A DNA stretch of 64,000 nt, taken from assembly GCA_944331915.1 (NCBI GenBank), contig CALVIR010000001.1:10851-74850 (forward strand), given 5' to 3'. Positions within the stretch are counted from its first letter, which is position 1, and each line of letters starts with the position of its first letter. The DNA is from an uncultured Bacilli bacterium (GTDB taxonomy: Bacteria; Bacillota_I; Bacilli_A; RF39; UBA660). Below are positions 2,505 to 19,406 of the stretch, one piece after another. The position numbers and the translations under genes are program-made. Under the pieces are notes generated by a model. The model searched no databases. It was not told the origin of the DNA and saw nothing but the letters and a program-made list of their open reading frames with translations.

Positions 2505-2536
2505 TAAAAAGAACAGAATCCTTCTATCCTGTTCTT
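2505..2536 (-). terminator. Intrinsic-terminator-like hairpin inside the conserved leader of paralog A
   Basis: Minus-strand RNA AAGAACAG-12 nt loop-CUGUUCUU followed by UUU. The element is conserved upstream of paralog B, where a G-U wobble is compatible only with the minus strand. Confidence 0.6.
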
Positions 2537-2575
2537 ATTCTATAATTAAAGAAAGTACTTATTTGTTTAAAACTA

Positions 2576-2584
2576 CCCCCCCCC
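2576..2584. repeat. C9/G9 homopolymer tract in the leader of paralog A
   Basis: Nine consecutive C on the plus strand (G9 in the minus-strand leader). The paralogous position reads GGGGAGGGG. Confidence 0.9.
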
Positions 2585-2798
2585 AGTTAACAAATTGTGA
2601 ACTAGATATTCTTGACATTTTCATACCCTCTTCCTATAGATTGACGAATTAATTTACTCTAGAAATTTAAATAAGTCTATCTACTATTCTTTTCTTACCT
2701 TGATATCTTTTAGCTAATTATACATTATAAATAACTAAGTCAGCAATAGAAAATATTAAACTAGACAAAGTTTTTACACTTATCTAGTTAACATGATA

Positions 2799-4100
2799 CT
2801 AAACATCTTTAGTTTTAAAAGCTTTAAAGAATTTAGACCAAACCTTTTCATTTGAATAGTTTAATATACCTACTTTATATACTTTTAAACCATATTTTAA
2901 AATTATATAGATGAAAATAATTAGAATGACTATTGATATTATAATATCAATAATACTTATTTGTCCCATAATATAAAGACTTGGACTAACAAAGGAAGAA
3001 AGAAATGGAACATAAGATAAAATTCTAATTAAGGTTGAACCTTCAAACATTCCTGCCATCATGGCAAGATAATAACCTGCTAAAGAAATAAGCATGATTG
3101 GTGTTTGTAATTGACTAAAGTCTTCCATATTTACAGTCATAGAAGCTAAAATACCTGCAACAACAGCATAAGCTATGAAAGATAAAACAATTAAAACTAG
3201 TGTTAACGGAATAACATAGATTAATTTATCTAAGAAGCCACTTGCTACTAAACTATCAAAAATAGAGGTAAATTCACTTGGCATTGCTAAACCACTACTT
3301 AACATATTAGTACTTAATAAAAAGCCAACTACTGCATAAACAATAAGTAATACTCCTTGAATAATAACAAAAATATTACTAGCTAAAACTTTAGATAGAA
3401 GATGCATCTTTGGTGAAACATTAGAGATAATTATTTCCATACTCCTAGTTGTCTTCTCTTCACATATTTCTCCACCTACCATTTGTACTAAGAAAATCGT
3501 CAACATGAAGAAAGGTAAAATAATTGTTGGAAAAACACTACTCATAATAAGATTCATATTTTCATCAACATCAGTTTCTTCATTAAGAACAACTCTATTA
3601 ATAGTTATGGGACTAGAAATACTATTTAAAATATCATAATCGATATTATTAACAGCCATACCTATTGTTGTTTTCGTACTATTTAAAGCTTGTGATAATA
3701 ATTGATAAGTTAAGTTATCAATCTTATCATTACTTATAATACTAGCTTTTAAGTACTCATCATCACTATTTTCTAAAGCGATAATAATATCATCATCTTT
3801 AATATCTTCTTGCTCTTCCTCAACTGTTTTATCACTTTCTAAAATCTTAAATCTCTCTTCATCTTCAGTATTAGAAGCTTCTAAATTTTCTTTTAATAAT
3901 GATGAAGCATTAGTATTATTATCTACTATTATAATATTAGTTCTACTATCGAAATCTCCTCCAAAGAAAGTAATAACTGAATTAATATTTAAAAGTAAAA
4001 TGATAACAATAGCTAAGATAACATTAGTAATAATAAACCATTTAGATTTTATTTTTTTATTTAAACTTACTTTTGTTAAATACCAAAATTTCTTATTCAT
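2799..4100 (-). CDS. ABC-2 type transporter permease (NatB/YhaP-like) with a large acidic extracytoplasmic loop
   Basis: One N-terminal TM, an acidic loop of about 140 aa, then five or six C-terminal TMs. The ATG at 4100 follows a GGTGG RBS and overlaps the upstream ATPase stop. Confidence 0.7.
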   Translation of the reverse strand: MNKKFWYLTKVSLNKKIKSKWFIITNVILAIVIILLLNINSVITFFGGDFDSRTNIIIVDNNTNASSLLKENLEASNTEDEERFKILESDKTVEEEQEDIKDDDIIIALENSDDEYLKASIISNDKIDNLTYQLLSQALNSTKTTIGMAVNNIDYDILNSISSPITINRVVLNEETDVDENMNLIMSSVFPTIILPFFMLTIFLVQMVGGEICEEKTTRSMEIIISNVSPKMHLLSKVLASNIFVIIQGVLLIVYAVVGFLLSTNMLSSGLAMPSEFTSIFDSLVASGFLDKLIYVIPLTLVLIVLSFIAYAVVAGILASMTVNMEDFSQLQTPIMLISLAGYYLAMMAGMFEGSTLIRILSYVPFLSSFVSPSLYIMGQISIIDIIISIVILIIFIYIILKYGLKVYKVGILNYSNEKVWSKFFKAFKTKDV

Positions 4101-4989
4101 GGATACCACCTACTTTCGCAATAAAGATCTCATTCAAACTAGGCTCTACTAAATCATACTTAGTTATATTTTTATTCTTAACAAGATTAAACACTTTCGG
4201 TGCTACCTCTTTACTTTCTATTTTTACCTCAAGCTCTCCTCTTACTTTATTAACACTAATAACTCCTTTTATCTTCTTAATCTCATCTATTGGTAACTCT
4301 TCTCCTCGTAACATAATATTCTTAATACCATAGTCTTCTTTAATTTGTTTTAAAGAACCACTAACAACCGGAGTTCCTTTAACAAGGATAATTAATTTCT
4401 CACAAAAGTCTTCAATATGTTCCATCTGATGAGATGAAAAGATAATAGAACATCCTTCTTTTTGCAACTCATAAATTGCATCTTTCATCATTTTAACATT
4501 AATAGGATCAAGGCCTGTAAAAGGTTCATCAAGGATTAAGAGTTTAGGACGATTAATTACTGCTGATATAAACTGAATCTTCTGCTGGTTACCTTTAGAT
4601 AATTCTTTAATCTTCCTATTTTTATAGCTTTTGATATTAAAATGCTCTAACCATTTATCTAATTCTTTTTCAATTTTATTTTCATCAAGTCCTTTTAAGA
4701 CTCCATAAAACTTTATCTGCTCTAAAACCGTTAATTTAGTAAGCAAACTTCGCTCTTCTGTTACAAAGCCAATTTTATCAGTCTCATTATAATCTATTTT
4801 TTTACCATCTAATAAGACTGTCCCTTCATTCGCTTCAATTAACCCCATAATAATTCTAAAAGTTGTTGTTTTCCCTGCTCCATTTTCACCTAATAAGCCA
4901 AAGATTTCTCCATCTTTAACCGTAAAAGATAGATTATTAACCGCTTTATTTTTTCCATAATATTTTGTTATATTTTTAATCTCAAGCAT
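4093..4989 (-). CDS. ABC transporter ATP-binding protein (NatA-like)
   Basis: Walker A GENGAGKTT, signature LSKGNQQK, Walker B LLILDEP, and a C-terminal extension typical of the NatA/YhaQ group. Confidence 0.88.
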   Translation of the reverse strand: MLEIKNITKYYGKNKAVNNLSFTVKDGEIFGLLGENGAGKTTTFRIIMGLIEANEGTVLLDGKKIDYNETDKIGFVTEERSLLTKLTVLEQIKFYGVLKGLDENKIEKELDKWLEHFNIKSYKNRKIKELSKGNQQKIQFISAVINRPKLLILDEPFTGLDPINVKMMKDAIYELQKEGCSIIFSSHQMEHIEDFCEKLIILVKGTPVVSGSLKQIKEDYGIKNIMLRGEELPIDEIKKIKGVISVNKVRGELEVKIESKEVAPKVFNLVKNKNITKYDLVEPSLNEIFIAKVGGIHE

Positions 4990-4990
4990 C

Positions 4991-5572
4991 TTATTTTCTC
5001 TCCTTCAAATCTTTAATTTTTGTTATTTTATTTTTATCAACTAAATAAGCTTTAGAAGCCAAATCTATAAGTGGTTGATCACTATAACTATCAGTATATA
5101 CCTCTAATACTTTAATATCTATATATTTTTCTTTTAAATAAGTAACTTTCACCTCACCTTTGCAGTTAGCTTTAGTAAATTTACCATTTTTCTTATTAAC
5201 ATCACTAGCAATTAAATCTTTAACTTTTAACTCTTTAGTAATAGGTTTTAATAAAAAATAAGGTGAAGCGGAAATAATAATATCATTACGATGATCTTTT
5301 TCTAAATAAAACTGTTTTACCTTTTTCTTATTAACTTGCCAAAACTCCTTAACAACTTTATCTATATCTTTAAAAGCTTTTAAAAAGGAAAAGAAGACCT
5401 CTTTTACATAAGTTTTATTCTTTATCTTTAGAAAATAAAGAAAATAAGCCCCTATTACTTTTACGATATTAAAGATAAGATACTTTTTTCTTTTAACACA
5501 GAAAAAATAAAAGTCTAAAGATGAATCTCCATCATAGATTGTTTTATCAAAATCATAAATATTACATTTCAT
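4991..5572 (-). CDS. HAD-IB family phosphatase
   Basis: Motif I DFDKTI, motif II IISASP, and motif III/IV K...YTDSYSDQPL. Confidence 0.75.
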   Translation of the reverse strand: MKCNIYDFDKTIYDGDSSLDFYFFCVKRKKYLIFNIVKVIGAYFLYFLKIKNKTYVKEVFFSFLKAFKDIDKVVKEFWQVNKKKVKQFYLEKDHRNDIIISASPYFLLKPITKELKVKDLIASDVNKKNGKFTKANCKGEVKVTYLKEKYIDIKVLEVYTDSYSDQPLIDLASKAYLVDKNKITKIKDLKERK

Positions 5573-5580
5573 AACTGCTC

Positions 5581-7185
5581 CTAATAATATTTAATAGCAA
5601 AGTTAAAGATATTAATTACCTCTTTCATATTAAATACAAACACTCCTATAATTAATATAACCATTAATGCTACAAACACTTTCCTATTTTTAAATATTTT
5701 TTTAAGTAATAAGTAATATAAAGCTAAGTAAGCGAAAGAGAAATATAAACTATAGAGAATTAAACCATTCTCGGTTGTTCCCCAACCTACTATTAGTAAT
5801 AAAAGGATTGAAAAGATAACCCAAAGAAATGAGAATTTAGCAAAGTTATTTTTGCGATTTAGAATAAAGCTAACCACAACTGCTATTAATAAGATGATAC
5901 CAATAATACTAAAGGTAGTTACCTCCTGTAATTGATAAGTAGGAAAACCCTCAATCATTACTAAATGTCCTTTAGGAGCCAAAAGCGTCGTTTGAACAAA
6001 GTTTAAGAATTGATAAAGTTTATCCGTAAATGAGAGCTTTAAAGCAAAACTAGAGGTAAGTTCCCCAAATCTTGTTACAAATAAAAGTAACTGTGGTAGT
6101 TGTCCACTTATAACAAATATAGATATAAAAGCTAAGAAACATTTAAAGACATCACTAAGCCATTTCTTTAAGGTTTTACCTTTACTAATTAAAGGAAAAA
6201 TAATTCCTGATGTTAACATCGTTCCCACCGCTCCAATATATGGATAGTTAATTTTATCTTTTGTTGTAAAATAATAGTAAAGAGCTAAAATTAAGTAAAA
6301 TAACCCAATAACATACTGTTCTAAGATTATACTAAAAATCAAGGTAGGAAAACTAACACTAAATAATAAATAGAAATACTTTTTATCTTTTTCTTGAACA
6401 TGTAACATTCTTGCTATTAAAATAACTGTAACCACAAGTAAAATAAACTGGATAAAACACATCATTGTTGGATAAGCAAAACCAGTTGGTAAAAAGAATA
6501 GTAATTCTCCTAAAATTTTAGCTGCAACAGAAAAAGGAATCGCAAAAACACCAAATAACGGTTGTCTTATATCATTCTCCGCAAAACTTACATTAAAGTA
6601 AGTATCTTCATAAACTAAAGAACCAGAATCAGTCGTATATAAGACATCATATATCTTCAAATTACCTTCATGATACGGAATAGAAAACGCCGTTGTAACC
6701 GTATTAGCATAAAAAGCAATGATAAAGCCTAAAATACTAATAACTACTAAATATCGCTTTTCTATTTTTGATAATCCTAAAATAAATTTCTTAATCTTAG
6801 GGATAACTTTATCAATAAATAGATAAATAAAACAAGTTAAAGCCGGTATTGCTAACAAAGCTACAAGTTTATATAGCCCATCTTCTAAATAAATACCAAA
6901 AATATCATTAATTTTCGCTCCTAAACTATTAATCGCTAAATTATTTATCTTACTAAATAACCCTAACATATATAAACTAATCGCTAGGGATGCTAACAAC
7001 TTTTTACTATTTATCTTCCTAAACTGGCTAGAAAACTTACGCACTAAAATAAAGGCAATTATTAAAGAAATAAAAGCCCCAATACAAACAAATAAAGTCT
7101 CATATCTATTTGACAATAATAAAGTTAAAAAAGGACATGACAAAGCAAGAATAATCCTCATTATAATACTTAACTTATTTTTCAT
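5581..7185 (-). CDS. Polytopic membrane protein, putative GT-C-type glycosyltransferase
   Basis: 534 aa with at least 12 hydrophobic segments, and an extracytoplasmic-looking loop carrying acidic motifs (YEDTYF, AENDIRQP). It sits between the HAD phosphatase and the UbiA homolog. The fold assignment is an inference. Confidence 0.4.
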   Translation of the reverse strand: MKNKLSIIMRIILALSCPFLTLLLSNRYETLFVCIGAFISLIIAFILVRKFSSQFRKINSKKLLASLAISLYMLGLFSKINNLAINSLGAKINDIFGIYLEDGLYKLVALLAIPALTCFIYLFIDKVIPKIKKFILGLSKIEKRYLVVISILGFIIAFYANTVTTAFSIPYHEGNLKIYDVLYTTDSGSLVYEDTYFNVSFAENDIRQPLFGVFAIPFSVAAKILGELLFFLPTGFAYPTMMCFIQFILLVVTVILIARMLHVQEKDKKYFYLLFSVSFPTLIFSIILEQYVIGLFYLILALYYYFTTKDKINYPYIGAVGTMLTSGIIFPLISKGKTLKKWLSDVFKCFLAFISIFVISGQLPQLLLFVTRFGELTSSFALKLSFTDKLYQFLNFVQTTLLAPKGHLVMIEGFPTYQLQEVTTFSIIGIILLIAVVVSFILNRKNNFAKFSFLWVIFSILLLLIVGWGTTENGLILYSLYFSFAYLALYYLLLKKIFKNRKVFVALMVILIIGVFVFNMKEVINIFNFAIKYY

Positions 7186-7193
7186 AACATCAC

Positions 7194-8051
7194 CTATAAA
7201 ACATATAAAATCATTATTAAAAATAAAACATAAACTAAACCTAAAGCCATTATAGCTTTATCATGAACAATAACCTCAACCGGATCACCATCACTTTCTC
7301 CTTCAATATCCATACTATATTTCATACAGATAATTATCACTAAAGGAACAGTCCAAATAAGCAAATTATTACTTTTAGAAACAATAGATAAATCTGTTGT
7401 CCATAAAGAATAGAAAATAATAGTCATCGTTAAAAACATATACATATTTTTATCTAAAAAGTCTTTACTATAATACTTTAAAACATTTCTAGTTTTACTA
7501 CCATTTTTAACAATTTCATTTCTTCTTTTTCCTAATCCTAAATAGAAAGAAATAGCAATCACAGTTAAATATAACCAATTAGAAACTGTAATTGCAAGAA
7601 GAGAGGCTCCAAATAAGACTCTAATAACAAAACCAGAAACTAAAATAACAATATCAACCAAGGGAACATTTTTTAATCCTAAACTATAAAGTAAATTTAA
7701 AAGAAAATAAAGTCCTAAATAACCTATTGATAAAAGACTAAAATTAAGAATGATAACTAATAAAGCAACAATAATTAAGAGGCAAACCATAAAGATAAGT
7801 GCATTCCTAACACTGATTTTTCCTGCTGCAATCGGTCGTTTACACTTGGTTTTATGCTTCTTATCTTTTTCTTTATCTTTAATATCATTAATTATATAAA
7901 TAGAACTAGCAACCAGTGAAAAACAAAGAACACCCCCTAATGTTATTAATAAATTAGAAAGTGAGAAAAATTTACCACTAAAAAGCAGTGGTAAAAAAAT
8001 AAGAAAGTTTTTAATATAATGCTTTGGTCGCATTAATTTTAAATATTCCAT
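7194..8051 (-). CDS. UbiA-family polyprenyl-phosphate 5-phosphoribosyltransferase (DPPR-synthase-like, Rv3806c type)
   Basis: Collinear with the mycobacterial enzyme as I recall it: MRPKHYIKNF, YIINDIKDKEKDKKH.TK..RPIAAG, GLK..P.VDI, GKRRNE, and C-terminal GDPVE. Confidence 0.7.
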   Translation of the reverse strand: MEYLKLMRPKHYIKNFLIFLPLLFSGKFFSLSNLLITLGGVLCFSLVASSIYIINDIKDKEKDKKHKTKCKRPIAAGKISVRNALIFMVCLLIIVALLVIILNFSLLSIGYLGLYFLLNLLYSLGLKNVPLVDIVILVSGFVIRVLFGASLLAITVSNWLYLTVIAISFYLGLGKRRNEIVKNGSKTRNVLKYYSKDFLDKNMYMFLTMTIIFYSLWTTDLSIVSKSNNLLIWTVPLVIIICMKYSMDIEGESDGDPVEVIVHDKAIMALGLVYVLFLIMILYVL

Positions 8052-8052
8052 A

Positions 8053-8991
8053 CTAATTGCCTTTCTCTTTTTTTGTTCTAATTAAAATTAATTCAAATAA
8101 CTGCCGATGTTTTTTCACTAATACCTCAAGAATAATTCCACAAACAAATAGTAAAATGGCAATAATTAACATAAAACCAGCAAAGATTAAAGTCGGAATT
8201 CTTGGAACTAAACCTGTTTCAAAATATTCAACAAAGACAGGAATACCAAAAATTAAAGAAATTATTAAAAAGATTAAACTAACTAAAGAAAAGAATAAAG
8301 TTGGTTTATATTCCTTAAATAATCTAGCAATAGTCTTTAAGACTTTAAAGCCATCACTATAAGTATTTAACTTTGATACGCTTCCCTTTGGTCGATCTCG
8401 ATAAGAAACTGGTATTTCTTTTAATAAGAAATTTTTATCAAGCGCATGAATCGTCATTTCTGTTTCTATTTCAAACCCTTTAGATAAAACTGGAAATGTC
8501 TTAACAAATTCATAACTAAAAGCCCTATATCCTGTCATAATATCTCTAATATTACTGTGAAATAAGGTATTAATTAATCCTCTTACTAATTTATTACCAA
8601 AGTTATGAAATGGTCTTTTATTTTCTGTAAAATATGTTGATGATAATCTATCCCCTATTACCATATCAGCTTTACCTTCTAAAACAAGATTACACATTTC
8701 TTTCGCATTCTCTTTAGGATATGTATCATCACCATCAATCATCAAATAACAATCAGCATCAATGTCCTTAAACATTGTTCTAATCACGTTACCTTTACCT
8801 TGCCGATATTCATATTTAACAATTGCCCCCGCCTTTTTAGCAATTTTATCAGTCCCATCTGTAGAATTGTTATCATAAACATAAATATCTGCCTCTGGTA
8901 AAACCTCTTTATAGTCTTTAACTACCTTCGCAATTGTTTTACTTTCATTATAGCAGGGAATTAAAACTGCAATTTTCTTATCTTTACTCAT
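8053..8991 (-). CDS. GT2 glycosyltransferase with two C-terminal TMs (polyprenyl-phosphate glycosyltransferase-like)
   Basis: IAVLIPCYNE, DNNSTDGT, IDGDDTY, and C-terminal hydrophobic helices as in GtrB/CsbB-type enzymes. Confidence 0.75.
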   Translation of the reverse strand: MSKDKKIAVLIPCYNESKTIAKVVKDYKEVLPEADIYVYDNNSTDGTDKIAKKAGAIVKYEYRQGKGNVIRTMFKDIDADCYLMIDGDDTYPKENAKEMCNLVLEGKADMVIGDRLSSTYFTENKRPFHNFGNKLVRGLINTLFHSNIRDIMTGYRAFSYEFVKTFPVLSKGFEIETEMTIHALDKNFLLKEIPVSYRDRPKGSVSKLNTYSDGFKVLKTIARLFKEYKPTLFFSLVSLIFLIISLIFGIPVFVEYFETGLVPRIPTLIFAGFMLIIAILLFVCGIILEVLVKKHRQLFELILIRTKKEKGN

Positions 8992-8993
8992 TT

Positions 8994-10142
8994 CTACACC
9001 TCTTCCTTAACATCTATTTTAACAAAATGAATACTATTTATAAAGTCATAATATTTTTCTCTTATCTTAGCTGCTATTTTTAAATTGTAAATTACTCTAA
9101 ACAATACTTGTCTTAACCATTCTATTATTAAACAAGTAATATAGATAAATAAGGCAATTACAATAACATAAATTATAAATCTATATGAATATATTGGCCC
9201 ATTATTTATTTTTAAAGCTTCATATAGTAAAGCTCTAGCAAAATTATTATCATGGATTAAGTAAACTCCAATCGTAAGAAGAGATAATCTATTAATTAGT
9301 TTGCTTTTAATTGATAAAGTTCCAAAGAAAGCGAAATAGGCAATCGTTTGAATAACTACTAATGGATTATTATAAAGAATAGCAATACTTGTAATATAAG
9401 AACTTAACTCATCAATGATAGAATTAATACCAGTCAAAGAAGAAGCATATTTATAAAATACATAGTTTAAGGTAAGAGCTAAGAAAAAGACAAAGATTAA
9501 AACTACTTGATACATTCTCTTAGACATAACTTTAAATATATAACTTTTATCTAATGGATACCTTCTTAAATAAGCTCCAATTAAGTACATATAAATAAAT
9601 TGATATAAAGAGAAACCATTATTCTCAAAGAATTGTCTTCCTGTTATAACCGGAATAATAGAAAAGATTATAAACATCACTAACAAAAGTTTTTGAAAGC
9701 TTTTCTTATCAAAGTTCTTTAACCCTCTATTTATAAAAGGACTTAAACAGTATAATAAGATATAACATTTAATAAACCAATATTCATTTATGTTTATAGG
9801 AAATACTTCTTTAAAGATTGTAACTTTATCTAAAGTAATAATACCTAAAACAAGTAATATCACCATAATAACAATTCGATAAAATAAGCTGGCATTAATA
9901 ATTGACCACAATTTTGATTGTTTAAAATTACTTGTTGACTGATAATAACCAGATAGTAAGACAAACGAATTAACATGAACTAAAGTAAAGAATTCTAAAA
10001 CCTCTAAAATTATCTTTGCTCCTTCATTATAACAGTTTTGTAAAACTAATCCATGATAAATAACATGATACAAGATAATTAAAAACATTGATGTAATACG
10101 CATTAATTCATAGTTAGAGTTTCTCATCTTTACTTTATCCAT
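8994..10142 (-). CDS. Acyltransferase family 3 membrane protein (O-acyltransferase)
   Basis: RNSNYELMRITSMFLIILYHV start, about 10 TMs, and the size typical of Acyl_transf_3. Confidence 0.78.
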   Translation of the reverse strand: MDKVKMRNSNYELMRITSMFLIILYHVIYHGLVLQNCYNEGAKIILEVLEFFTLVHVNSFVLLSGYYQSTSNFKQSKLWSIINASLFYRIVIMVILLVLGIITLDKVTIFKEVFPININEYWFIKCYILLYCLSPFINRGLKNFDKKSFQKLLLVMFIIFSIIPVITGRQFFENNGFSLYQFIYMYLIGAYLRRYPLDKSYIFKVMSKRMYQVVLIFVFFLALTLNYVFYKYASSLTGINSIIDELSSYITSIAILYNNPLVVIQTIAYFAFFGTLSIKSKLINRLSLLTIGVYLIHDNNFARALLYEALKINNGPIYSYRFIIYVIVIALFIYITCLIIEWLRQVLFRVIYNLKIAAKIREKYYDFINSIHFVKIDVKEEV

Positions 10143-10217
10143 ATTCCGTATCCCCCATATCCATACCTTATAAGAATGATATAATATTTTTTGCTATTTG
10201 TAAAGTATTGTAAACAA

Positions 10218-11951
10218 TTATTTAGATTTAACAATATAACTAGCCAATAGTAAAAGTGGTAAACATGCAAAAGCACTATAAATATATCTAAATTCGGCAA
10301 AGACAGGTGTTGCAACCATCATCGTTAACCAAATACCAATAACTGGAACAAAGACATAAAGTGATCTATAATTTTTACGTTTAATCGCTACCATAAAGGC
10401 AATAAAGATTAACCAAATGCCTAAACCAATACTCCAAGAAAAGTTAAGAATAGGAATTTCTTTAGTTGTTAAATGATTAGTTACCTCTTTAACTTTAGCA
10501 GGTAATAAACTACTATCTATCAAACCAAGATCATTTTTATCTATTTTAGTTACTACTGTCCAATAATCAATAGTTGGATACCAATAACCTAAAGTAGATA
10601 TTAAATAAGCTTCACTAGCTACACTAAAATGTTTAAAACATAAACTTGCCCATAATTTTAAATATGTAAGTTTATTCTCTTCAAAAACCTCTTTATTATA
10701 TTCATCATTAAATTTAATACTATCAACAATCTCTGGATTATAAGAATTCCTCAAAGTCTCTAAAGGTATTAATTCATTAATAAGCTCTTCCTCTTCTTCT
10801 GTAAACTCTACTCCTTTATAAGCCATTCTACCTAACTGCTGTAAAGGAATCGCTAAATACTCCGTAGAACTAGAACTTTTAACATTAAAATAACTGTAAA
10901 TTGGTCCTTTAACACCAAAATAAACTACAAAAACAATTAAAAGCATCAAACCAATCGTCTTTATCTGCTTTCTAAAGACTATTAAAGTAATAATTGCCAA
11001 AATAATATACATATAAATAGCATTATTTCTAAAGAAGACGGTTAAAATAGAAATTATAATAAAAGTATAAGAATTTCTAAACGTAATCGTTTTCTTTTCT
11101 AAAAGTTTAACTAATTCCATCGTTAATAATAAAACTAAACCACAAAATATAACATCTTTCCAATTAGAGATACTATAAAAAGCATGAACTGGTAAAATGG
11201 CAAAATATAAAAGAACAAAAAGTAAAATATATTTATTTACTCCTCTTTTATAAAGGAATGATATAAACTTACCAAAGATTAAAGACATAATAATCATCTG
11301 GGTAAGAGTAATTAATGAACAAGCGATAACAGTATTATCAAATAAAGCCATTCCTAATTTATAAGGAATTGTCATAAATAACAAATGAATAACTGTATGA
11401 TGATCACTAATTGTACTAAAATTACTAGCAATCATATTTAACTCAGAAATAGAATCATTTGTAAATAATCCTGGATAATAAATTAAAAAGTATGGTAAGA
11501 AACATAAGAAGATAATTAAACTTGCTCCTAAGAAGACATTAATTTTTCTTTTAAAAGTAAACTTTTTAATAACTTTCGCTTCACATACTACTGGTAAAAC
11601 ATTAATTAGTAACAGGTAAAAAATTGCGGTATAGCCACTAATATAAATAAGGGACTTTAATTTAAATAATTCTCTAAAGACACTATAAGTATCATTATAT
11701 CTAAAGCTATAACAAATCATACCTAATAGATATATAAGAGCAAGAAAAACAGAAAGTAAAAAGGTAAAACGGCCATACTTTTTATTAAATAAATCACTTT
11801 TATAAGCTGCAATAACAAAGATAACAAACACTACTAATAGTAAGACATTAAAGTTAGCGATATAATCTTGATAGATTAAAGTTACATAACTTAATACTCC
11901 CATTAATATAGATATGATGATTTTTTTATTATTTTTTATTAGTTCTTTCAT
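10218..11951 (-). CDS. Polytopic membrane protein, putative GT-C-like glycosyltransferase or polymerase
   Basis: 577 aa, many TMs, and a soluble loop of about 110 aa near the C-terminus. The family was not recognised with certainty. Confidence 0.35.
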   Translation of the reverse strand: MKELIKNNKKIIISILMGVLSYVTLIYQDYIANFNVLLLVVFVIFVIAAYKSDLFNKKYGRFTFLLSVFLALIYLLGMICYSFRYNDTYSVFRELFKLKSLIYISGYTAIFYLLLINVLPVVCEAKVIKKFTFKRKINVFLGASLIIFLCFLPYFLIYYPGLFTNDSISELNMIASNFSTISDHHTVIHLLFMTIPYKLGMALFDNTVIACSLITLTQMIIMSLIFGKFISFLYKRGVNKYILLFVLLYFAILPVHAFYSISNWKDVIFCGLVLLLTMELVKLLEKKTITFRNSYTFIIISILTVFFRNNAIYMYIILAIITLIVFRKQIKTIGLMLLIVFVVYFGVKGPIYSYFNVKSSSSTEYLAIPLQQLGRMAYKGVEFTEEEEELINELIPLETLRNSYNPEIVDSIKFNDEYNKEVFEENKLTYLKLWASLCFKHFSVASEAYLISTLGYWYPTIDYWTVVTKIDKNDLGLIDSSLLPAKVKEVTNHLTTKEIPILNFSWSIGLGIWLIFIAFMVAIKRKNYRSLYVFVPVIGIWLTMMVATPVFAEFRYIYSAFACLPLLLLASYIVKSK

Positions 11952-13110
11952 CTTTATTCATTCCCAAAACTTTTCTAATATTTTCAACATATCTATATCT
12001 CTTAGAATTATATATAGCCGTTAAGTTATCTTTTAATTCTTTCGCTTCATGTTTATATTTATCACAAAGTATATTTGTCTTTTCATATTCCTCTTTATAG
12101 TAATTACGTTGATATTGTAATTCTTCTACTGTAAAGTACAAACTTTCCGCTTGTCTTTTTAAGTCTTTAACTTTATCTTCTTTATATTTCTCAAACTCTA
12201 TATCTTTAACTTTTAAAGATTCAGCATTATTAACAAAGTCCTGACATTTTTTAATTAAGTCTTCTCGATATTTTAAGTAATGAGTAGGATTACTTAATGG
12301 TTTATCTATATATTCTAGTAATTTAGAGTCTTTCAAGCATTCACTTTTCGTAATAGAGTTACACATTTTAGAATACAAATTCATTCTATTAACAACATCT
12401 TGATTATTATCATCATAGATTAAAAGAACAGGCTCTTCTATAGCAAGACAAGGTAGGCATGAATGTAATCTGCTTGTAATAACACATCTAGCTTGTTGAT
12501 ATTTTCTAAGAAGTTTATGTACATTTTCCAGTCTCTCTTCTAAACTAAGCTTAGAGTTTTTCTTGCCATCAAGATCATGACAAATCTCTACTACTTTTAA
12601 ATTAGTATGTTCTTTTATTCTCTTTACAATTTTCTCATCCAAATCAACGACACAAATATAATTTTGTTTTTTAACATTCTCTTCTTTAGGAATTGTTAAA
12701 GTCATACAACCAGAAAAATAATTTTTAACCTCATCTTCATCTAAATATTTTTTTACAAGATCATCTCTCAATCCAATTGGTTCATATTTTTTTAACCAAG
12801 AAGTTGCTAAACCTTTTAGATAAGTTGGTCCATTAATCTCCGTATTCCGAAAATGCATAGAAACAGGTAAAGGATTAATATAAGGTGAAGGTGGAAAACA
12901 AGATCTATTACTTAACCACCAACCATTCATAATACAGTTAACAGTTTCTTTATCATCTGAAACAAAAGAATCTACCTCTTCTCTATCTATAATGTAATCA
13001 ATATGAGGTAAAAAACGACTAGCCGCATAACTTTGGACATCATCACCAATATTATCTGTATTTTTAAAAACAATCAAGCCAAATTTAGGTTCATTCTTCT
13101 TCATCTTCAT
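11929..13110 (-). CDS. Polysaccharide pyruvyl transferase family protein with a C-terminal coiled coil of about 100 aa
   Basis: NTDNIGDDVQ near the N-terminus and ITSRLHSCLPCLAIEEPVLLI resemble PS_pyruv_trans motifs. The C-terminus is rich in heptad-like K/E repeats. Confidence 0.6.
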   Translation of the reverse strand: MKMKKNEPKFGLIVFKNTDNIGDDVQSYAASRFLPHIDYIIDREEVDSFVSDDKETVNCIMNGWWLSNRSCFPPSPYINPLPVSMHFRNTEINGPTYLKGLATSWLKKYEPIGLRDDLVKKYLDEDEVKNYFSGCMTLTIPKEENVKKQNYICVVDLDEKIVKRIKEHTNLKVVEICHDLDGKKNSKLSLEERLENVHKLLRKYQQARCVITSRLHSCLPCLAIEEPVLLIYDDNNQDVVNRMNLYSKMCNSITKSECLKDSKLLEYIDKPLSNPTHYLKYREDLIKKCQDFVNNAESLKVKDIEFEKYKEDKVKDLKRQAESLYFTVEELQYQRNYYKEEYEKTNILCDKYKHEAKELKDNLTAIYNSKRYRYVENIRKVLGMNKDERTNKK

Positions 13111-13115
13111 TCTCC

Positions 13116-15119
13116 TTAATCACCATAATAAATAATAGGTGGTGTTAACTTATGATAATTATCACTCTTCCTAGCCTTCTTAATAAATTTAACTAAATCC
13201 CCTTTTTCAAAAGCTTTATTACGTTTTATAATATAATTTTTTAAATCTTGATCATGTAAAGACTCTATTCTTTGTTTATAAAGATCATTATTAAAAATAT
13301 CAAGAACTATATCTTTTAAGTTTTTATAAATATAATTAACATATTCATCAATAAATTCATCACTAACTGTATATAGTTGATTGATAATATAATCTTCAAT
13401 TCGCCAAGAATATGTATAATATTTAAATTTATCTTTTGAAACATTTAAATAGTCTTCATATTTTTCTAATCTCTCACTCACTTTTTTCAAGATATCAATC
13501 ATACTAAAACCAGGTTTAGTTCTATTAATAGAATTACTTCTAATATAGTATTCGTAATAAGGCTTATTAATATACTTAATAGTTTCTGCTTTTAACATAA
13601 TAAATGGATTTGTACTTAAGTCTTCAAATTTATCTTCTATATAAGTAATAGCTAAATCTTGATATAAAGATTTTTTAATAATCTTATTACAAGTTGAAGG
13701 CATAATCGTTGTATATAACAGTCCTTCATAACGGTTTATATCATTGAAGACATAATCTATTGCTGCTGTTTCATATTTATTATCATCAGTTACTGTTAAC
13801 CAATCACACATAACTATATCAACATCTTTTTCTAAATAAGGTAAAGCCTTAGTAAAGAAATCTATATTAATCGTATCATCTGAATCAATTGACGCAATAT
13901 ATTTACCCTTCGCTTCTTTTAAACCTACATTTCTAACATTACCGAGCCCATGATTTTCTTGTTTAATATATCTAATCAAGTCTTTATATTTTTCAAGGTA
14001 TTCTAAAATAATTTTTTCACTATTATCAGTAGAACCATCATTAATAACGAGTATTTCCATATCTTTAACAGAAGCATTAATAATAGAGTCAAGCGACTTA
14101 GCTAAATATTTTTCAGTATTATAAACAGGTACAACTACTGTCATTAGTAATTCATCTTTATTATCGCTTTTTTTAGTTTCTTCTCTAAGTCCTAAAAACT
14201 CTTCTACACTCTCTTTACTTTTCTTAACATAATCTTTTCTAAACTTTAAATACTCTTTAAGTATTTTATCTCTATTTTTAAGGGCTTCTTTTATTTTCAA
14301 AGCAATATAATCAATACTATCATCACTTTTAACTACTAGCATCTCTTTTAAGCACTTATAATCATCTAGTATTTCCATATTTCCAATAAGACAAGGAATA
14401 CCTTTATCCATACTTTTAAGGAAAACAGTCTTATTATTAGCAGCAAAGTTAATATAAAGATTTATTTTATTATCATATAAATCATTACTATTACTAACTG
14501 TTTCATAGTTAACATTAAAAGTTCTTAAGAATTTTTTTGTTGTCTTTGAAGGATTATATATTTTAGCTTTAATTTCATCATCTAGTAATTTTATGGCGCT
14601 AAGTTCATTATAAAAACTATGCTTCGGATCTTCTTGATTATTTAATAGTCCAACAGTCTTCTCTTCTACCTCTAATTTAGCATTTTCTTCTTTTTCTACA
14701 TCAAGAAGAAGGTATTTAACCTTATCTTTTTTCTTTAAAGTCTCATACAAACCTCTATCTAATAAACCAATAGTTCCTTCATATTTCTTAGCTAACTCTC
14801 TAATCTGTAAAAAAATATCATAAATAAATCTATCAGTCAAAGATCCAAGTGACTTAGTAAAAATAAAGTCCATCTCCGGTTCTTTTTGCAAGCTATCAAT
14901 AAGTTGAACATATTCTACTTGATAATCAACAAAAATTAATTTCTTAAAGTTATTTCTATTAATGAACTCCCTCATGAAATCTACATCATCTAAGTTATTA
15001 TTCATGAGTATAACATTTTTAAAAGTATAGTTAAATGCCTCCAACAACTCCTTACTCATAAAAGGAACTATAACTAAATATTTTTTATTATATATTAAAT
15101 CTAAACTCTTCTCTATCAT
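13116..15119 (-). CDS. Two-domain glycosyltransferase (N-terminal GT-B-like domain, C-terminal GT2)
   Basis: The C-terminal half carries VVVPVYNTEKYL, VINDGSTDNS and IDSDDT. The N-terminal half has GIPCLIGN, resembling the GT4 E-x7-E region. Confidence 0.75.
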   Translation of the reverse strand: MIEKSLDLIYNKKYLVIVPFMSKELLEAFNYTFKNVILMNNNLDDVDFMREFINRNNFKKLIFVDYQVEYVQLIDSLQKEPEMDFIFTKSLGSLTDRFIYDIFLQIRELAKKYEGTIGLLDRGLYETLKKKDKVKYLLLDVEKEENAKLEVEEKTVGLLNNQEDPKHSFYNELSAIKLLDDEIKAKIYNPSKTTKKFLRTFNVNYETVSNSNDLYDNKINLYINFAANNKTVFLKSMDKGIPCLIGNMEILDDYKCLKEMLVVKSDDSIDYIALKIKEALKNRDKILKEYLKFRKDYVKKSKESVEEFLGLREETKKSDNKDELLMTVVVPVYNTEKYLAKSLDSIINASVKDMEILVINDGSTDNSEKIILEYLEKYKDLIRYIKQENHGLGNVRNVGLKEAKGKYIASIDSDDTINIDFFTKALPYLEKDVDIVMCDWLTVTDDNKYETAAIDYVFNDINRYEGLLYTTIMPSTCNKIIKKSLYQDLAITYIEDKFEDLSTNPFIMLKAETIKYINKPYYEYYIRSNSINRTKPGFSMIDILKKVSERLEKYEDYLNVSKDKFKYYTYSWRIEDYIINQLYTVSDEFIDEYVNYIYKNLKDIVLDIFNNDLYKQRIESLHDQDLKNYIIKRNKAFEKGDLVKFIKKARKSDNYHKLTPPIIYYGD

Positions 15120-15127
15120 ACATTCAC

Positions 15128-16942
15128 CTACATTCTAAGAAAGTCATCTATATCTTTTTTCGCTTGTTCTAAATTATCTTTAGAAAACTTTTTATATAAT
15201 TTAAGCACCTCATCTTGAAAAGCAAGAGATTTATCAATCTTCTCTTTTATCTCAAGAGGATTCTCTTCATTATTAACAACTAAATACTCTTCTAATGGTC
15301 CATCTTTAAAGTAATGATGATTATTACCAGTAATACAAGGAACACCCATTTCTAAGCTTTCTAATGGTAACATAGGAGCACATTCTGAAAAAGTAACATA
15401 CAAGTTAATATCGTTTAAAGACATTCTTTCTATTAACTCTTCTCTTTTTAAGGAATTATTAACTCCCTCTATTTTTACTCCTACAATATTGGCAAACTCT
15501 ATCGCTTCCTCATTTAAAGGTACCATATCAATAACAGCATTATCAATCAAGGAAGCTGCTGCAATTTGGGTAAACATATTCTTCCGCCAATCATCACACT
15601 TTGCCGCATATAAACCAATTCTAATTTCTTTACTATTTTTCTTCTTCAATGGTTTAATCTCTGTAGTAACTTTATTAGTAATAAATTTAGCTTTATAACC
15701 TTCTTTTAAATAAAAGTTTAACAAACTCTCTTTACAAGTTGCCATAACACTAATAATTCCTTTTTTATGAAGATTAATTATCTCTAAATTACGTTCAAAA
15801 CCATATGAATCTAATATTTGTGAATGACTTCCATGCCAATAAGTTTTTAATTTTAAACTAGGATCTTCTTCTTTTAAATATTTAGCTAAATCTTTATACC
15901 CTTTAGCAAAAGAACTAAAAACTACTTGTTTAATACTCGTATTAGTAATCGCATCCCCTATTCTCTTAATATCTTGTTTACGATATATTTCTCCACAATC
16001 TACTGTATTTTCAAACAATTCTTTAGTTGCACTCGTAACTCCTAACCAATCTTTATTATGGAAAACAATATAAGGAGCATTTTTCGCCGCTAAAACATTT
16101 ATTGCTTTAATAGTATTATCAATTCTCTCTAAATATTTATCATCTATTAACAATTTCTTTCTTTTATTATTTCTATATATAACAACCGGAAACAAAACTA
16201 CTTTCGCACCTTTTCTTATTATATCTTTAGTTTTTCTATAGTAATGAAGAATAGCAAAAGTCTTCTTACGTCCTATCTTTCTTACCATATTAGTTTCAAT
16301 TCTCTCTTTTAAAGGAATCCAACTAGCATCATAATAGTGAATCATACATGTATTATCTGTAAAGATATTATTAGTCCTATCATATGAATATGGATAGAAA
16401 TAATCTCTTGGATAAATATATATTCCATCTCCTAAGATTTGAATTTCTTTACTGCCTTTTTTTAGTCCTAATGGATCTAAGATAGAACTTAATAGTTTAG
16501 GAATTGCATAGTTAGATATATTCTCAACATCAAAATGGGGAATAGCTTGATAAGTTTCTAGTAATTTCGTTGGTAACAAGGCATTTTCTTTATTTTCATA
16601 CCAAACTCCAACAGCAACATAACCTGTATCTTCTATTCCTAAAAAGGTATTACCTGTCTCTAATAATTTAGTAATATCTTTAATTACCTCCATATCAGTA
16701 TCAAAGTAGATACCCCCATACTCTTTTAAAGCTTTCGCTCTAGCATAGTCAGCCACAAAAGCCCATTTCTTATTTTCATAAGCTTCCTTTACAAATGGAC
16801 ACTCATCTAAATCAACATTTTCTTCTGACCATTTCATAATAGTAAAATCAGGCAAATATTTCTGCCAACTCTTTAAGCATTTTTCTGCTAACTTTGGAAA
16901 AGGTTTATCACCAAACCAACAATAATGAATATATTTCTTCAT
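15128..16942 (-). CDS. Two-domain glycosyltransferase (N-terminal GT32/Gly_transf_sug-like, C-terminal GT-B/GT4-like)
   Basis: IHYCWFGDKP...SW.KYLPD, YARAKALKEYGGIYFDTDMEV (DXD), and C-terminal LESLEMGVPCITGN. Confidence 0.75.
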   Translation of the reverse strand: MKKYIHYCWFGDKPFPKLAEKCLKSWQKYLPDFTIMKWSEENVDLDECPFVKEAYENKKWAFVADYARAKALKEYGGIYFDTDMEVIKDITKLLETGNTFLGIEDTGYVAVGVWYENKENALLPTKLLETYQAIPHFDVENISNYAIPKLLSSILDPLGLKKGSKEIQILGDGIYIYPRDYFYPYSYDRTNNIFTDNTCMIHYYDASWIPLKERIETNMVRKIGRKKTFAILHYYRKTKDIIRKGAKVVLFPVVIYRNNKRKKLLIDDKYLERIDNTIKAINVLAAKNAPYIVFHNKDWLGVTSATKELFENTVDCGEIYRKQDIKRIGDAITNTSIKQVVFSSFAKGYKDLAKYLKEEDPSLKLKTYWHGSHSQILDSYGFERNLEIINLHKKGIISVMATCKESLLNFYLKEGYKAKFITNKVTTEIKPLKKKNSKEIRIGLYAAKCDDWRKNMFTQIAAASLIDNAVIDMVPLNEEAIEFANIVGVKIEGVNNSLKREELIERMSLNDINLYVTFSECAPMLPLESLEMGVPCITGNNHHYFKDGPLEEYLVVNNEENPLEIKEKIDKSLAFQDEVLKLYKKFSKDNLEQAKKDIDDFLRM

Positions 16943-17032
16943 ATAAATACCTCGTACTTTCTTCCTGTTCTAAACATTTCCATTATAACAAAGATAAAAT
17001 TCTTTTACAACAAAAGAGAAAAATAAGAAAAG

Positions 17033-17822: not shown

Positions 17823-18581
17823 TTAATCCTTTAAATCTTTTCCCATTTGTTTTTTATAATATTCTTTACAAATTTTATCAGTTTCTCCAATTTTAACAAC
17901 TTTACCATGTTCAAGCCAAACAACTCTATTACATAATTCCATAATTGATGATAAGTCATGAGAAACATAAAGAACTGTTGTTCCTCCTTTAATCATTTCC
18001 ATCATTTTATTTTTACTTTTCTCTTGGAACTTAATATCCCCAACTGATAAAATTTCATCAACAATTAAAATCTCAGGATTAACAACTGTCGCGATAGAAA
18101 AGGCAAGTTTAGCAACCATACCAGAAGAAAAGTTTCTAACTGGTGCATCCAAGAAATCTTTTAACTCAGAAAACTCTACAATTTCATCAAATTTCTCATC
18201 TAAAAACTCTTTAGAATATCCTAAAATTGAACCATTAAGATAAATGTTTTCTCTTGCTGTTAATTCCGCATCAAAACCAGCTCCAAGCTCAATCATAGGA
18301 GAAATAACTCCATTAACTGTAACTTTACCTTTTGTAGGTTTTAATACTCCACTAACTACTTTTAATAAGGTACTCTTACCAGCTCCATTGCTCCCAATCA
18401 AACCAATAACCTCACCTTTTTTAACCTCAAAAGAAACATCACTAAGGGCCCAAAAAACATCTTTTTTATTTTTCTTTTTTCTCTTCTTAGGACTAAAGAA
18501 ATTAATAAAAGCTTGTTTAATCGAAAACTCTTTTTCTATCCCTAAATTAAATTTCATCGAAACATGCTCTAATTTAATCAT
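17823..18581 (-). CDS. tagH: Teichoic-acid/polysaccharide export ABC transporter ATP-binding protein (TagH/Wzt type, no C-terminal carbohydrate-binding module)
   Basis: The KEFSIKQAF..FF leader is typical of TagH/Wzt. Walker A GSNGAGKST, signature FSSGM, Walker B ILIVDE. Confidence 0.85.
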   Translation of the reverse strand: MIKLEHVSMKFNLGIEKEFSIKQAFINFFSPKKRKKKNKKDVFWALSDVSFEVKKGEVIGLIGSNGAGKSTLLKVVSGVLKPTKGKVTVNGVISPMIELGAGFDAELTARENIYLNGSILGYSKEFLDEKFDEIVEFSELKDFLDAPVRNFSSGMVAKLAFSIATVVNPEILIVDEILSVGDIKFQEKSKNKMMEMIKGGTTVLYVSHDLSSIMELCNRVVWLEHGKVVKIGETDKICKEYYKKQMGKDLKD

Positions 18582-18593
18582 CTAAAAAACCTC

Positions 18594-19406
18594 CTAAATA
18601 TAATATATAAACTTATCTTGATTCTTCTTAAAGATAATCGCTCCAATTAGTAATGTACCCACTCCTAAAAGTCCTACAACAGCAAGGGTAAGAAGAGACG
18701 GACAATTACCATAAAGAACAATTTCTCTTACGGCCGTTATAAATTGATATAAAGGATTAAATTTAAATAAAGTTTGCAGAGAAGCTGGTAATATTTCAAT
18801 ACTATAGAATACTGGTGTAAAGTAATTCCAAATTGTTAAGATAATACCATATATATAGAAAACATCTCTTAAGAATACAGAAATACATGAAAGAAACATC
18901 CCAATACCAACGGTAAATAAGAAGAAACATAAGAAGATATATGGTATTAGTAAGTAATACCAGTTAATAGAAGCTGGGTAAGTTCCAAGACCAAACTGGG
19001 TTAATATTATTAAAATAGCCCAAGGTATTAAAGTCATAACAAAGTTAATCCCCACAAAGATACATTTAGCGATAGGAAAAATGTATTTAGGAATATAAAC
19101 TTTACTGATTAAAGCAAAGTTACTAACTACTGAGGTCATGGCATTATTAGTCGCTTCACTAAAGTATTGAAACATAATAGTACCTGTCATCAAATAAACA
19201 AGATAATTAACCCCTTCAACACTAAATCTAAACATCTGTGAAAAGACCATTGCCATAACTGCAACCATTAATACGGGATATAATAAACTCCAAACAACAC
19301 CTAAGACTGATCTTTTATATTTTACTTTAAAGTCTCTAGTTATTAACTGTTGCATTAAAAACTGATATTTTTTAAAATTGTACCAAATATTTTTTAAACT
19401 TGTCAT
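18594..19406 (-). CDS. tagG: ABC-2 type polysaccharide/teichoic-acid export permease (TagG/Wzm type)
   Basis: LITRDFKVKYKRSVLGVVWSLL signature, six TMs, adjacent to tagH. Confidence 0.85.
   Translation of the reverse strand: MTSLKNIWYNFKKYQFLMQQLITRDFKVKYKRSVLGVVWSLLYPVLMVAVMAMVFSQMFRFSVEGVNYLVYLMTGTIMFQYFSEATNNAMTSVVSNFALISKVYIPKYIFPIAKCIFVGINFVMTLIPWAILIILTQFGLGTYPASINWYYLLIPYIFLCFFLFTVGIGMFLSCISVFLRDVFYIYGIILTIWNYFTPVFYSIEILPASLQTLFKFNPLYQFITAVREIVLYGNCPSLLTLAVVGLLGVGTLLIGAIIFKKNQDKFIYYI

Follow-up and report, generated by a model that had tools for sequence, protein, structure and literature searches.

A candidate ribofuranose decoration module in a cell-wall glycopolymer operon of an uncultured Bacilli bacterium

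Why does a Firmicute cell-wall glycopolymer operon encode a homologue of the first enzyme of the mycobacterial decaprenyl-phospho-arabinose pathway, and which sugar would this enzyme and its neighbours bring to the cell surface? The question is raised by a 64-kb stretch of contig CALVIR010000001.1 of an uncultured Bacilli bacterium (G+C content of about 27%), the whole of which is referred to here as the window. The subject of the analysis is a set of four minus-strand open reading frames (ORFs) of the window, which had been claimed in an earlier sequence-only reading of this DNA and which are present exactly where that reading had placed them:

8053 to 8991, minus strand: GT2 glycosyltransferase of 312 residues, candidate GtrB/AglJ-like polyprenyl-phosphate hexose(-NAc) synthase (NCBIfam AglJ, two C-terminal transmembrane helices)
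7194 to 8051, minus strand: UbiA-superfamily protein of 285 residues, predicted polyprenyl-phosphate 5-phosphoribosyltransferase (PPPRS) of the Rv3806c type (NCBIfam, alignment to PDB entry 8j8j, contacts to phosphoribosyl pyrophosphate, PRPP)
5581 to 7185, minus strand: polytopic membrane protein of 534 residues, GT-C-like and DUF6080-related, candidate extracytoplasmic ribofuranosyltransferase (AlphaFold2 model and Foldseek, synteny)
4991 to 5572, minus strand: stand-alone HAD-IB phosphatase of 193 residues, candidate phosphoribose 5-phosphatase giving polyprenyl-P-ribofuranose (Pfam, NCBIfam, AlphaFold2 model, fusions)

The gaps between these genes are 1 nucleotide (nt; GT2/UbiA), 8 nt (UbiA/membrane protein) and 8 nt (membrane protein/HAD). 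Our conclusion is that the module probably serves the extracytoplasmic decoration of a glycan with a pentofuranose, most likely ribofuranose, in the manner known from Citrobacter and within a Firmicute cell-wall glycopolymer operon.

In Citrobacter youngae O1, ORF15, a fusion of a HAD domain and a PPPRS, makes undecaprenyl-phospho-ribofuranose (undP-Ribf) from PRPP, as was shown biochemically (Kelly et al. PNAS 2024, PMC11127046). ORF14, of the MATE family, is the proposed flippase, and ORF12, the GT-C enzyme founding family GT136, attaches alpha-Ribf in the periplasm to an O antigen whose export depends on an ABC transporter (PMC11127046). Epimerases, which are either ORF13 or DprE1/E2 homologues, turn the donor into xylofuranose (Xylf) or arabinofuranose (Araf) (PMC11127046). 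Gram-positive candidate loci (Bacillus sp. NP157) were listed by Kelly, Duong, Nothof, Lowary and Whitfield, and in one phage locus the phosphatase is separate from the PPPRS (PMC11127046). The sequence-only reading had regarded the pathway as uncharacterised in Firmicutes. This stands with regard to Firmicutes, as our literature search returned no characterised Firmicute example and no ribofuranose in lactococcal exopolysaccharide (EPS), but the pathway itself was proven in C. youngae in 2024.

The UbiA homologue as a predicted phosphoribosyltransferase

The protein encoded at 7194-8051 matches the Pfam family UbiA (PF01040, 3.3e-24). Its top NCBIfam matches are three decaprenyl-phosphate phosphoribosyltransferase models, with 195, 188 and 141 bits, and the model of HAD-UbiA fusions reaches 164 bits. 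The models of the 4-hydroxybenzoate (UbiA), heme-o (CyoE), chlorophyll (ChlG) and geranylgeranylglyceryl phosphate (GGGP) prenyltransferases reach at most 47 bits. In a phmmer search of the PDB, residues 4-275 align to residues 18-292 of Mycobacterium tuberculosis Rv3806c (8j8j, E 2e-31), with an identity of about 30% over the full length.

The residues that bind PRPP in Rv3806c, taken from its structure paper (PMC10994848), were mapped through the 8j8j alignment, and nine of the twelve are identical in the window protein. R22, N73, D77, K87, R90, Y138 and K143 of Rv3806c correspond to R8, N55, D59, K69, R72, Y122 and K127, respectively, and the two residues that bind the 5'-phosphate, K28 and Y70, correspond to K14 and Y52. 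Q135 is conservatively replaced by N119, Y157 is equivalent to F141, a variant noted for some mycobacteria (PMC10994848), and K208 is not conserved (N189). The Mg-binding motif N-D-x2-D-x3-D is also present, as N55-D56-x2-D59-x3-D63. As prenyl-transferring UbiA enzymes do not conserve the phosphoribose-binding sites (PMC10994848), the retention of these contacts is specific evidence for the use of PRPP. The protein is predicted to make polyprenyl-P-ribose-5-P from PRPP, and this is the most secure step of the mechanism proposed below. The model ranking, the 8j8j alignment and the PRPP contacts agree with the sequence-only reading, which had placed the protein with Rv3806c and apart from the quinone and heme types; the profile-based placement likewise puts the decaprenyl-phosphate models on top and the other UbiA subfamilies far below them.

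Search for epimerases and identity of the sugar

Which pentose is transferred would depend on epimerases acting on the donor. As queries, we used the DprE1-like protein, the DprE2-like short-chain dehydrogenase/reductase (SDR) and the NAD-epimerase of an Agrobacterium plasmid locus of the arabinose type, in which a HAD-UbiA fusion is encoded with DprE1-like, SDR, NAD-epimerase and GtrA genes. With phmmer, none of them had a match at E <=0.001 in any window ORF of at least 60 residues. The same result was obtained for the 79 loci of a genome scan that carry relatives of the 534-residue protein (within 10 kb; ORFs of at least 70 residues, heavy overlaps removed). Rhodococcus PAP2 and AftA-like (annotated ZomB) queries, run alongside, also gave no match. 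Pfam scans covering nearly all ORFs of the window with 100 residues or more detected no FAD_binding_4, adh_short/SDR or Epimerase family, and the only dehydrogenase in the scanned window is a zinc-dependent alcohol dehydrogenase (40061-41086). The window thus holds no FAD oxidoreductase/SDR epimerase pair, as the sequence-only reading had stated, and dprE1/dprE2 homologues, whose presence next to the module in related genomes would have spoken for an ordinary arabinose pathway, are missing from the 10-kb surroundings in all 79 loci. Since no epimerase was detected in the window or in the related loci, ribofuranose is the likeliest sugar to be transferred.

The 534-residue membrane protein

The protein encoded at 5581-7185 exhibits 13 hydrophobic segments, in line with the at least 12 transmembrane (TM) segments reported earlier, and has no match in Pfam, NCBIfam or PDB sequence searches. 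Its AlphaFold2 model, based on a 50-sequence alignment, has a pLDDT of 93 and a pTM of 0.93. In a Foldseek search of this model against the PDB no match had an E-value below 0.001, and GT-C enzymes account for all eight matches that reach a probability of 0.57, namely Pmt4, ALG12, ALG9, Pmt1/Pmt2, PimE and OST-A (probability 0.57-0.99, TM-score 0.24-0.44). Transporters such as MATE1 reached a probability of 0.07 and a TM-score of 0.13. The sequence-only reading had proposed a GT-C-like protein, and the credible structural neighbours of the model are indeed GT-C only, with no solved structure found by sequence; we describe the predicted fold as GT-C-like. A Foldseek search against viral structures returned nothing credible, and homologues were detected neither by tblastn in INPHARED phages nor by a scan of IMG/VR. 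The phage search gave one weak match for UbiA, in an unannotated fragment.

A 31-member alignment of the family, with sequences from Bacilli, Clostridia, Paenibacillus, Lactococcus, Planctomycetaceae, Treponema and Muribaculaceae, shows D186, N204, P209, P217 and E289 to be invariant and D180, D205, Q208, Q290 and Y291 to be nearly so. The block from D180 to P209 sits in the loop 163-213, which comprises seven D/E and two K/R residues. The loops 50-63 and 125-144 contain five and seven K/R residues, respectively. Loop 163-213 is predicted to lie outside the membrane because of the positive-inside rule and because relatives carry an N-terminal HAD fusion, which must be cytoplasmic. As the first 105 or so residues are variable in the family, or absent (Lactococcus), this loop would be the first extracytoplasmic loop of the conserved core, after the first conserved TM segment. 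The catalytic acid of GT-C enzymes is usually found in the first extracytoplasmic loop, and the acidic residues of loop 163-213 (D186, as well as D180 and D205) are predicted as candidate catalytic acids.

DUF6080 (PF19558), an uncharacterised membrane protein family of Pfam, is related to the family of the 534-residue protein through C-terminal matches. It is matched by 14 of the 31 diverse members (best 5.6e-9), the matches span only about 100 C-terminal residues, and the window protein itself has none. The EpsG, PMT_2 and ArnT-type Pfam models had no match at E <=0.1 among the 31 members. A profile search of 1.84 billion representatives returned 905 clusters at E <=0.001, which indicates a discrete family of moderate size.

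The HAD phosphatase

The 193-residue protein encoded at 4991-5572 matches the Pfam family HAD (PF12710, 5.8e-19), and its best NCBIfam matches are HAD-IB models. The catalytic motifs D7xD9xT11, S101 and D161/D165 are invariant across 42 homologues. A PDB sequence search was empty. The AlphaFold2 model has a pLDDT of 96, and its Foldseek neighbours are HAD-IB proteins (3fvv, E 5e-9), phosphoserine phosphatases and MtnX. The assignment as a HAD-IB phosphatase made from the sequence is consistent with the intact motifs, with the fold and with relatives that are fused to GtrA or to the membrane protein family. The candidate role in the pathway is assigned because of the gene position and of these fusions.

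Conservation of the module and gene fusions

The genome scan yielded 76 intact copies of the membrane protein gene, which, together with the window, make 77 loci for counting. A UbiA/PPPRS homologue is found within three genes of the membrane protein gene in 53 of these loci, a HAD in 32 and a GtrA domain in 20; DUF6020 occurs anywhere in the locus in 10 of the 77, and no further conserved gene family was detected in the neighbourhood. The co-occurrence of UbiA, HAD and membrane protein expected from the sequence-only reading is thus observed, and it is accompanied by fusions. A HAD is fused N-terminally to a protein of the 534-residue family in three loci and in further database proteins. HAD-GtrA fusions, confirmed by Pfam, occur in 13 loci (L035, L048, L052, L054, L055, L061, L063, L067, L068, L070, L072, L075 and L076). 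These fusions of HAD-IB with a C-terminal GtrA, of about 320-350 residues, are also seen in many database proteins (e.g. P0315) and are very common beside the UbiA and membrane protein genes. Roughly one in three of the top 120 HAD homologues is a fusion of this kind, and a single cluster of them comprises 743 sequences. The fusion suggests a coupling between the dephosphorylation of the lipid-linked ribose and its flipping. A further apparent fusion, an 836-residue "UbiA" ORF (L071, 1381-3891), was rejected, as the membrane protein match lies in another reading frame and the ORF is an upstream-extension artefact.

The full set is present on a dairy plasmid of Lactococcus cremoris, pF27D (L081, NZ_CP068515.2, locus 10584-13703), within a Wzx/Wzy EPS cluster. 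The order there is membrane protein, "decaprenyl-phosphate phosphoribosyltransferase" (52% identical), HAD-IB phosphatase and GtrA (83 residues), so that a lactococcal EPS with a pentofuranose side chain is predicted. The plasmid is mobilizable, and its host is culturable and genetically tractable. In some genomes (L004, L007 and L042), the UbiA/membrane protein pair, or the trio with HAD, lies outside glycan clusters. Paenibacillus spp. (L036, L037 and L040, locus 9545-12920) exhibit two tandem paralogues of the membrane protein, of 570 and 543 residues, downstream of UbiA, and no HAD or GtrA was detected near them. This suggests two acceptors or two linkages, with the phosphatase being encoded elsewhere.

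Proposed pathway

Based on these predictions from sequences and models, a mechanism can be outlined in which the UbiA homologue and the HAD phosphatase supply a polyprenyl-P-Ribf donor that the GT-C-like protein uses outside the cell; we consider this full scheme rather likely. At the cytoplasmic face, the UbiA-family enzyme would transfer ribose-5-phosphate from PRPP to undecaprenyl phosphate, and the HAD-IB phosphatase would then remove the 5-phosphate, giving polyprenyl-P-ribofuranose. The lipid-linked sugar would be flipped, a task that a GtrA domain may perform in relatives and that could here fall to a distant GtrA protein (30376-30828) or to another transporter. Finally, the 534-residue protein would move the ribofuranose onto the exported wall polymer by means of residues of the acidic loop 163-213. 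This acceptor polymer is probably made by the enzymes of the GT32, GT2 and pyruvyltransferase genes in the same operon and exported by TagGH. The flippase and the acceptor are the least secure parts of the mechanism. Every part of the sequence-only mechanistic reading that could be examined computationally held, i.e. the UbiA type, the predicted GT-C-like fold, the HAD-IB fold with its motifs and the lack of epimerases in the window and the related loci.

Operon context, transporters and a probable parallel hexose system

The following features surround the module:

17823 to 19406, minus strand: TagG/TagH-like (Wzm/Wzt-type) ABC-2 polymer exporter (Pfam ABC2_membrane and ABC_tran), comprising the TagG homologue (18594-19406) and the TagH homologue (17823-18581)
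2509 to 17010, minus strand: putative 11-gene transcription unit with a promoter-like sequence (17010-16982) and a terminator-like hairpin (2536-2509), both consensus matches only
10218 to 11951, minus strand: DUF6020 polytopic membrane protein, candidate second GT-C acting as hexose acceptor-side enzyme (Pfam DUF6020 1e-29, about 14 hydrophobic segments)
8994 to 10142, minus strand: Acyl_transf_3 membrane O-acyltransferase within the 11-gene operon (Pfam PF01757, 1.9e-17)
4093 to 4989, minus strand: DrrA-like ABC ATPase (Pfam), 1-nt gap to the HAD gene
2799 to 4109, minus strand: ABC2_membrane_3 permease (Pfam), 17-nt overlap with the ABC ATPase gene
30376 to 30828, minus strand: the only GtrA-family flippase candidate in the window (Pfam GtrA_DPMS_TM 1.1e-24, four TM segments)

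Between about 2.8 and 31.7 kb of the window, nearly all genes are on the minus strand and related to surface glycans. The 11-gene unit, with intergenic gaps of -23 to 75 nt, comprises in order the genes for a GT32-like enzyme, a 667-residue GT2, a pyruvyltransferase, the DUF6020 protein, the Acyl_transf_3 acyltransferase, the GT2 of 8053-8991, UbiA, the 534-residue protein, HAD, the DrrA-like ABC ATPase and the ABC-2 permease. The TagG/TagH genes lie just upstream, with a terminator-like site of their own behind them, and appear to be a separate transcription unit. TagGH is presumed to export the acceptor polymer, and its product is a plausible acceptor. The window comes from a relative of Candidatus Onthousia faecavium (Bacilli incertae sedis), and its UbiA and 534-residue proteins are 92% and 93% identical, respectively, to those of this chicken-gut metagenome-assembled genome.

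With regard to flipping, a step that the sequence-only reading had left aside, the GtrA gene is located 23 kb upstream of the module, beside a second GtrB-like GT2 (29425-30372). Apart from the window, only the two closest relatives (L001 and L002) conserve the ABC pair (2799-4989) next to the HAD gene; the pair may stand in for a flippase of the lipid-linked sugar or have nothing to do with it. In the Paenibacillus loci, an MsbA-like ABC half-transporter is instead encoded immediately ahead of the UbiA gene.

The sequence-only reading had counted the GT2 of 8053-8991 as a member of the module, but a role in a parallel hexose system appears more likely for it. The protein matches Pfam PF00535 over residues 9-163 (1.2e-18) and the NCBIfam models AglJ (238 bits; cut-off 325) and Dol-P-hexose transferase (86 bits), and it has C-terminal TM segments at 236-254 and 274-292. 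An N-terminal GT2 domain with two C-terminal TM helices is the design of GtrB and CsbB, which make polyprenyl-P-hexose from a nucleotide sugar. In relatives, this GT2 co-occurs with DUF6020 and GtrA, and one locus encodes a DUF6020-GtrA fusion of 714 residues (L010, 6462-8606). Because of this co-occurrence and this fusion, the GT2 and the DUF6020 protein would probably form a parallel hexose decoration system and not part of the ribose arm. BLASTP detected no relationship between the DUF6020 protein and the 534-residue protein.

A 773-residue protein encoded within the glycan region (22406-24727, minus strand) contains choline-binding repeats and a GH25 muramidase domain, which hints at a choline-bearing wall polymer. 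Another protein of 773 residues (27099-29420, minus strand) joins an O-antigen-ligase-like membrane domain to a GT4/GT1 glycosyltransferase domain, and its gene has as neighbours the GtrA gene and three GT2 genes, whose products are soluble or GtrB-like. DUF6273-like C-terminal regions, weak for two of the three, are present in the minus-strand products of 573-2402, 19671-20255 and 20206-21504. Each of them has a single N-terminal TM segment, and their genes flank the glycan operon.

Alternative explanations

Several observations weigh against the proposed pathway, all functions of which are predicted from sequences and models. The scores of the UbiA protein with the three decaprenyl-phosphate phosphoribosyltransferase models of NCBIfam are below the respective equivalog cut-offs (207, 234 and 474 bits), the best of them narrowly (195 against 207 bits). 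About 30% of the loci of the membrane protein family have no UbiA nearby. For the membrane protein, sequence searches of the PDB, which includes ArnT, found no solved GT-C enzyme, either with the single sequence or with the 31-member profile, and the Foldseek E-values of the GT-C matches are weak (0.07-1.6), with moderate TM-scores. With regard to the phosphatase, the profile of its family did not match the HAD part of the Agrobacterium HAD-UbiA fusion, and the model NF006088 matched the UbiA protein only, over its UbiA portion, and not the HAD. No specific similarity of the HAD to the ORF15-type phosphoribose phosphatase domain was found, and its Foldseek neighbours are generic. Pfam scans detected no MATE, SMR or GtrA gene in the operon (2.5-17 kb), so the module has no flippase gene of its own. 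An epimerase may be encoded beyond the 64-kb window, and the TagGH-exported polymer is an acceptor by presumption only.

These points bear on rival explanations that touch different steps. It is rather unlikely, but worth serious attention, that the mechanism is as proposed and that the acceptor is not the TagGH-exported polymer but lipoteichoic acid, a glycoprotein or peptidoglycan. The genomes in which the trio lies outside any glycan cluster, the Lactococcus set in a Wzx/Wzy and not an ABC-dependent cluster, and the apparently separate transcription of TagGH here would all fit such an acceptor. In the window, however, the trio belongs to a compact glycopolymer operon of 11 genes that directly follows TagGH, and the Citrobacter prototype also modifies an ABC-transporter-dependent polymer. 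With regard to the sugar, the same lipid-linked pathway could deliver an epimer, arabinofuranose or xylofuranose, the epimerase or epimerases being encoded elsewhere in a genome of which only 64 kb are covered; the GT-C enzyme can be donor-promiscuous, and epimerases diversify the sugar (Kelly et al., PMC11127046). We regard this as unlikely, since in characterised and predicted systems, such as the Agrobacterium plasmid locus, the epimerases lie within the locus, and none was found in the window or in the 10-kb surroundings of the gene at the 79 related loci.

The 534-residue protein could also be a flippase, polymerase, ligase or scaffold, with another GT-C, for instance the DUF6020 protein, using the ribose donor. 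The weakness of the Foldseek E-values, the uncharacterised nature of the family, the missing flippase gene and the presence of this second polytopic protein in the operon leave some room for such a role. Nevertheless, the credible structural neighbours are all GT-C transferases and not MATE, MOP or Wzy-type proteins, GtrA fills the flippase role in relatives, often fused to HAD, DUF6020 is far rarer in the loci than UbiA (10 against 53 of 77), and the loop with the invariant acidic residues is predicted to be extracytoplasmic; a role other than glycosyl transfer is quite improbable. Least probable by far is that the UbiA homologue works without PRPP, as a prenyltransferase that acts on some other head group, with the HAD and the membrane protein belonging to an unrelated lipid pathway. 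The sub-threshold NCBIfam scores and the loss of the K208 contact would agree with this, but the contacts to the 5'-phosphate and to the pyrophosphate that are specific to phosphoribosyltransferases are conserved, and the quinone, heme and chlorophyll models stay at or below 47 bits. We retain the transfer of ribofuranose from a polyprenyl-phosphate donor by the 534-residue protein as the preferred explanation. A bolder version is doubtful, namely that this protein founds a new, polyprenyl-P-ribofuranose-dependent and DUF6080-related GT-C family (about 900 clusters at 50% identity, mostly from gut Firmicutes) and that, in addition, the DrrA-like ABC-2 transporter (2799-4989) has replaced GtrA and flips the polyprenyl-P-monosaccharide with ATP.

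Significance

The logic of the pathway, and the likelihood that Gram-positives have it, were published in 2024, and the conceptual advance is modest for this reason. What is new here is the GT-C-like family, predicted to be DUF6080-related and, by Pfam/CDD labels, not GT136-like, together with the stand-alone HAD-IB, the module without a flippase gene and the wide spread in gut Firmicutes. If the proposal is correct, ribofuranose is added to the surface glycans of many gut and dairy Firmicutes through a lipid-linked route that has been proven only in a Gram-negative; among the carriers are Ca. Onthousia relatives, Roseburia, Christensenellaceae, Oscillospiraceae, Paenibacillus and Lactococcus EPS plasmids. 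An uncharacterised DUF6080-related membrane protein family would gain a function, and CAZy one more GT-C family. Pentofuranose epitopes would be predicted, with a bearing on host recognition and on phage receptors, lactococcal EPS among them, and a UbiA gene beside a gene of the 534-residue family would be a simple genomic marker for such glycans.

Comparison with known systems

The closest likeness is to the three-component system of C. youngae O1/O2, which also combines a UbiA-type PPPRS, a HAD-superfamily phosphatase and a GT-C-fold membrane protein in an ABC-transporter-dependent surface glycan locus. In the window, the GT-C-like gene adjoins the PPPRS gene, with the 8-nt gap, and no epimerase is present, which points to ribofuranose. 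The differences concern the host, which is Gram-positive here, and each of the accessory components. The HAD is separate and of a different HAD-IB subfamily, whereas that of ORF15 is the N-terminal domain of the PPPRS. ORF12 is EpsG-like by CDD, with ArnT as its nearest solved relative (PMC11127046). In contrast, the 534-residue family is DUF6080-related, has no EpsG, PMT_2 or ArnT Pfam match and lacks the C-terminal carbohydrate-binding module, GT136 being set apart from it by Pfam/CDD labels only and not by direct comparison with the ORF12 sequence. The window has neither a MATE nor an SMR gene; its relatives use GtrA, often fused to HAD.

The mycobacterial decaprenyl-phospho-arabinose pathway (Rv3806c, Rv3807c, DprE1/DprE2, Emb/Aft) shares a homologous first enzyme, with about 30% identity and conserved PRPP contacts, and the principle that GT-C enzymes draw, outside the membrane, on a lipid-linked pentofuranose donor. 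In contrast to it, the window has no DprE1/DprE2, its phosphatase is a HAD and not a PAP2 protein (Rv3807c), and the PDB searches showed no sequence resemblance of the 534-residue protein to Emb, AftA or AftD. The carrier is presumably C55 instead of C50, and the role would be side-chain decoration instead of arabinan polymerisation.

The Gtr-type hexose systems (GtrA/GtrB/GtrC, CsbB/YfhO and the lactococcal CsdAB) differ in that a GT2 makes the donor from a nucleotide sugar, whereas the donor of the ribose arm would come from a UbiA-type PRPP-dependent enzyme and a phosphatase. They are similar in the use of a polyprenyl-P-monosaccharide donor, in the presence of GtrA in relatives and in a GT-C transferase that would act on an already exported polymer, and the GT2 adjacent to the module (8053-8991) is itself typically GtrB-like.

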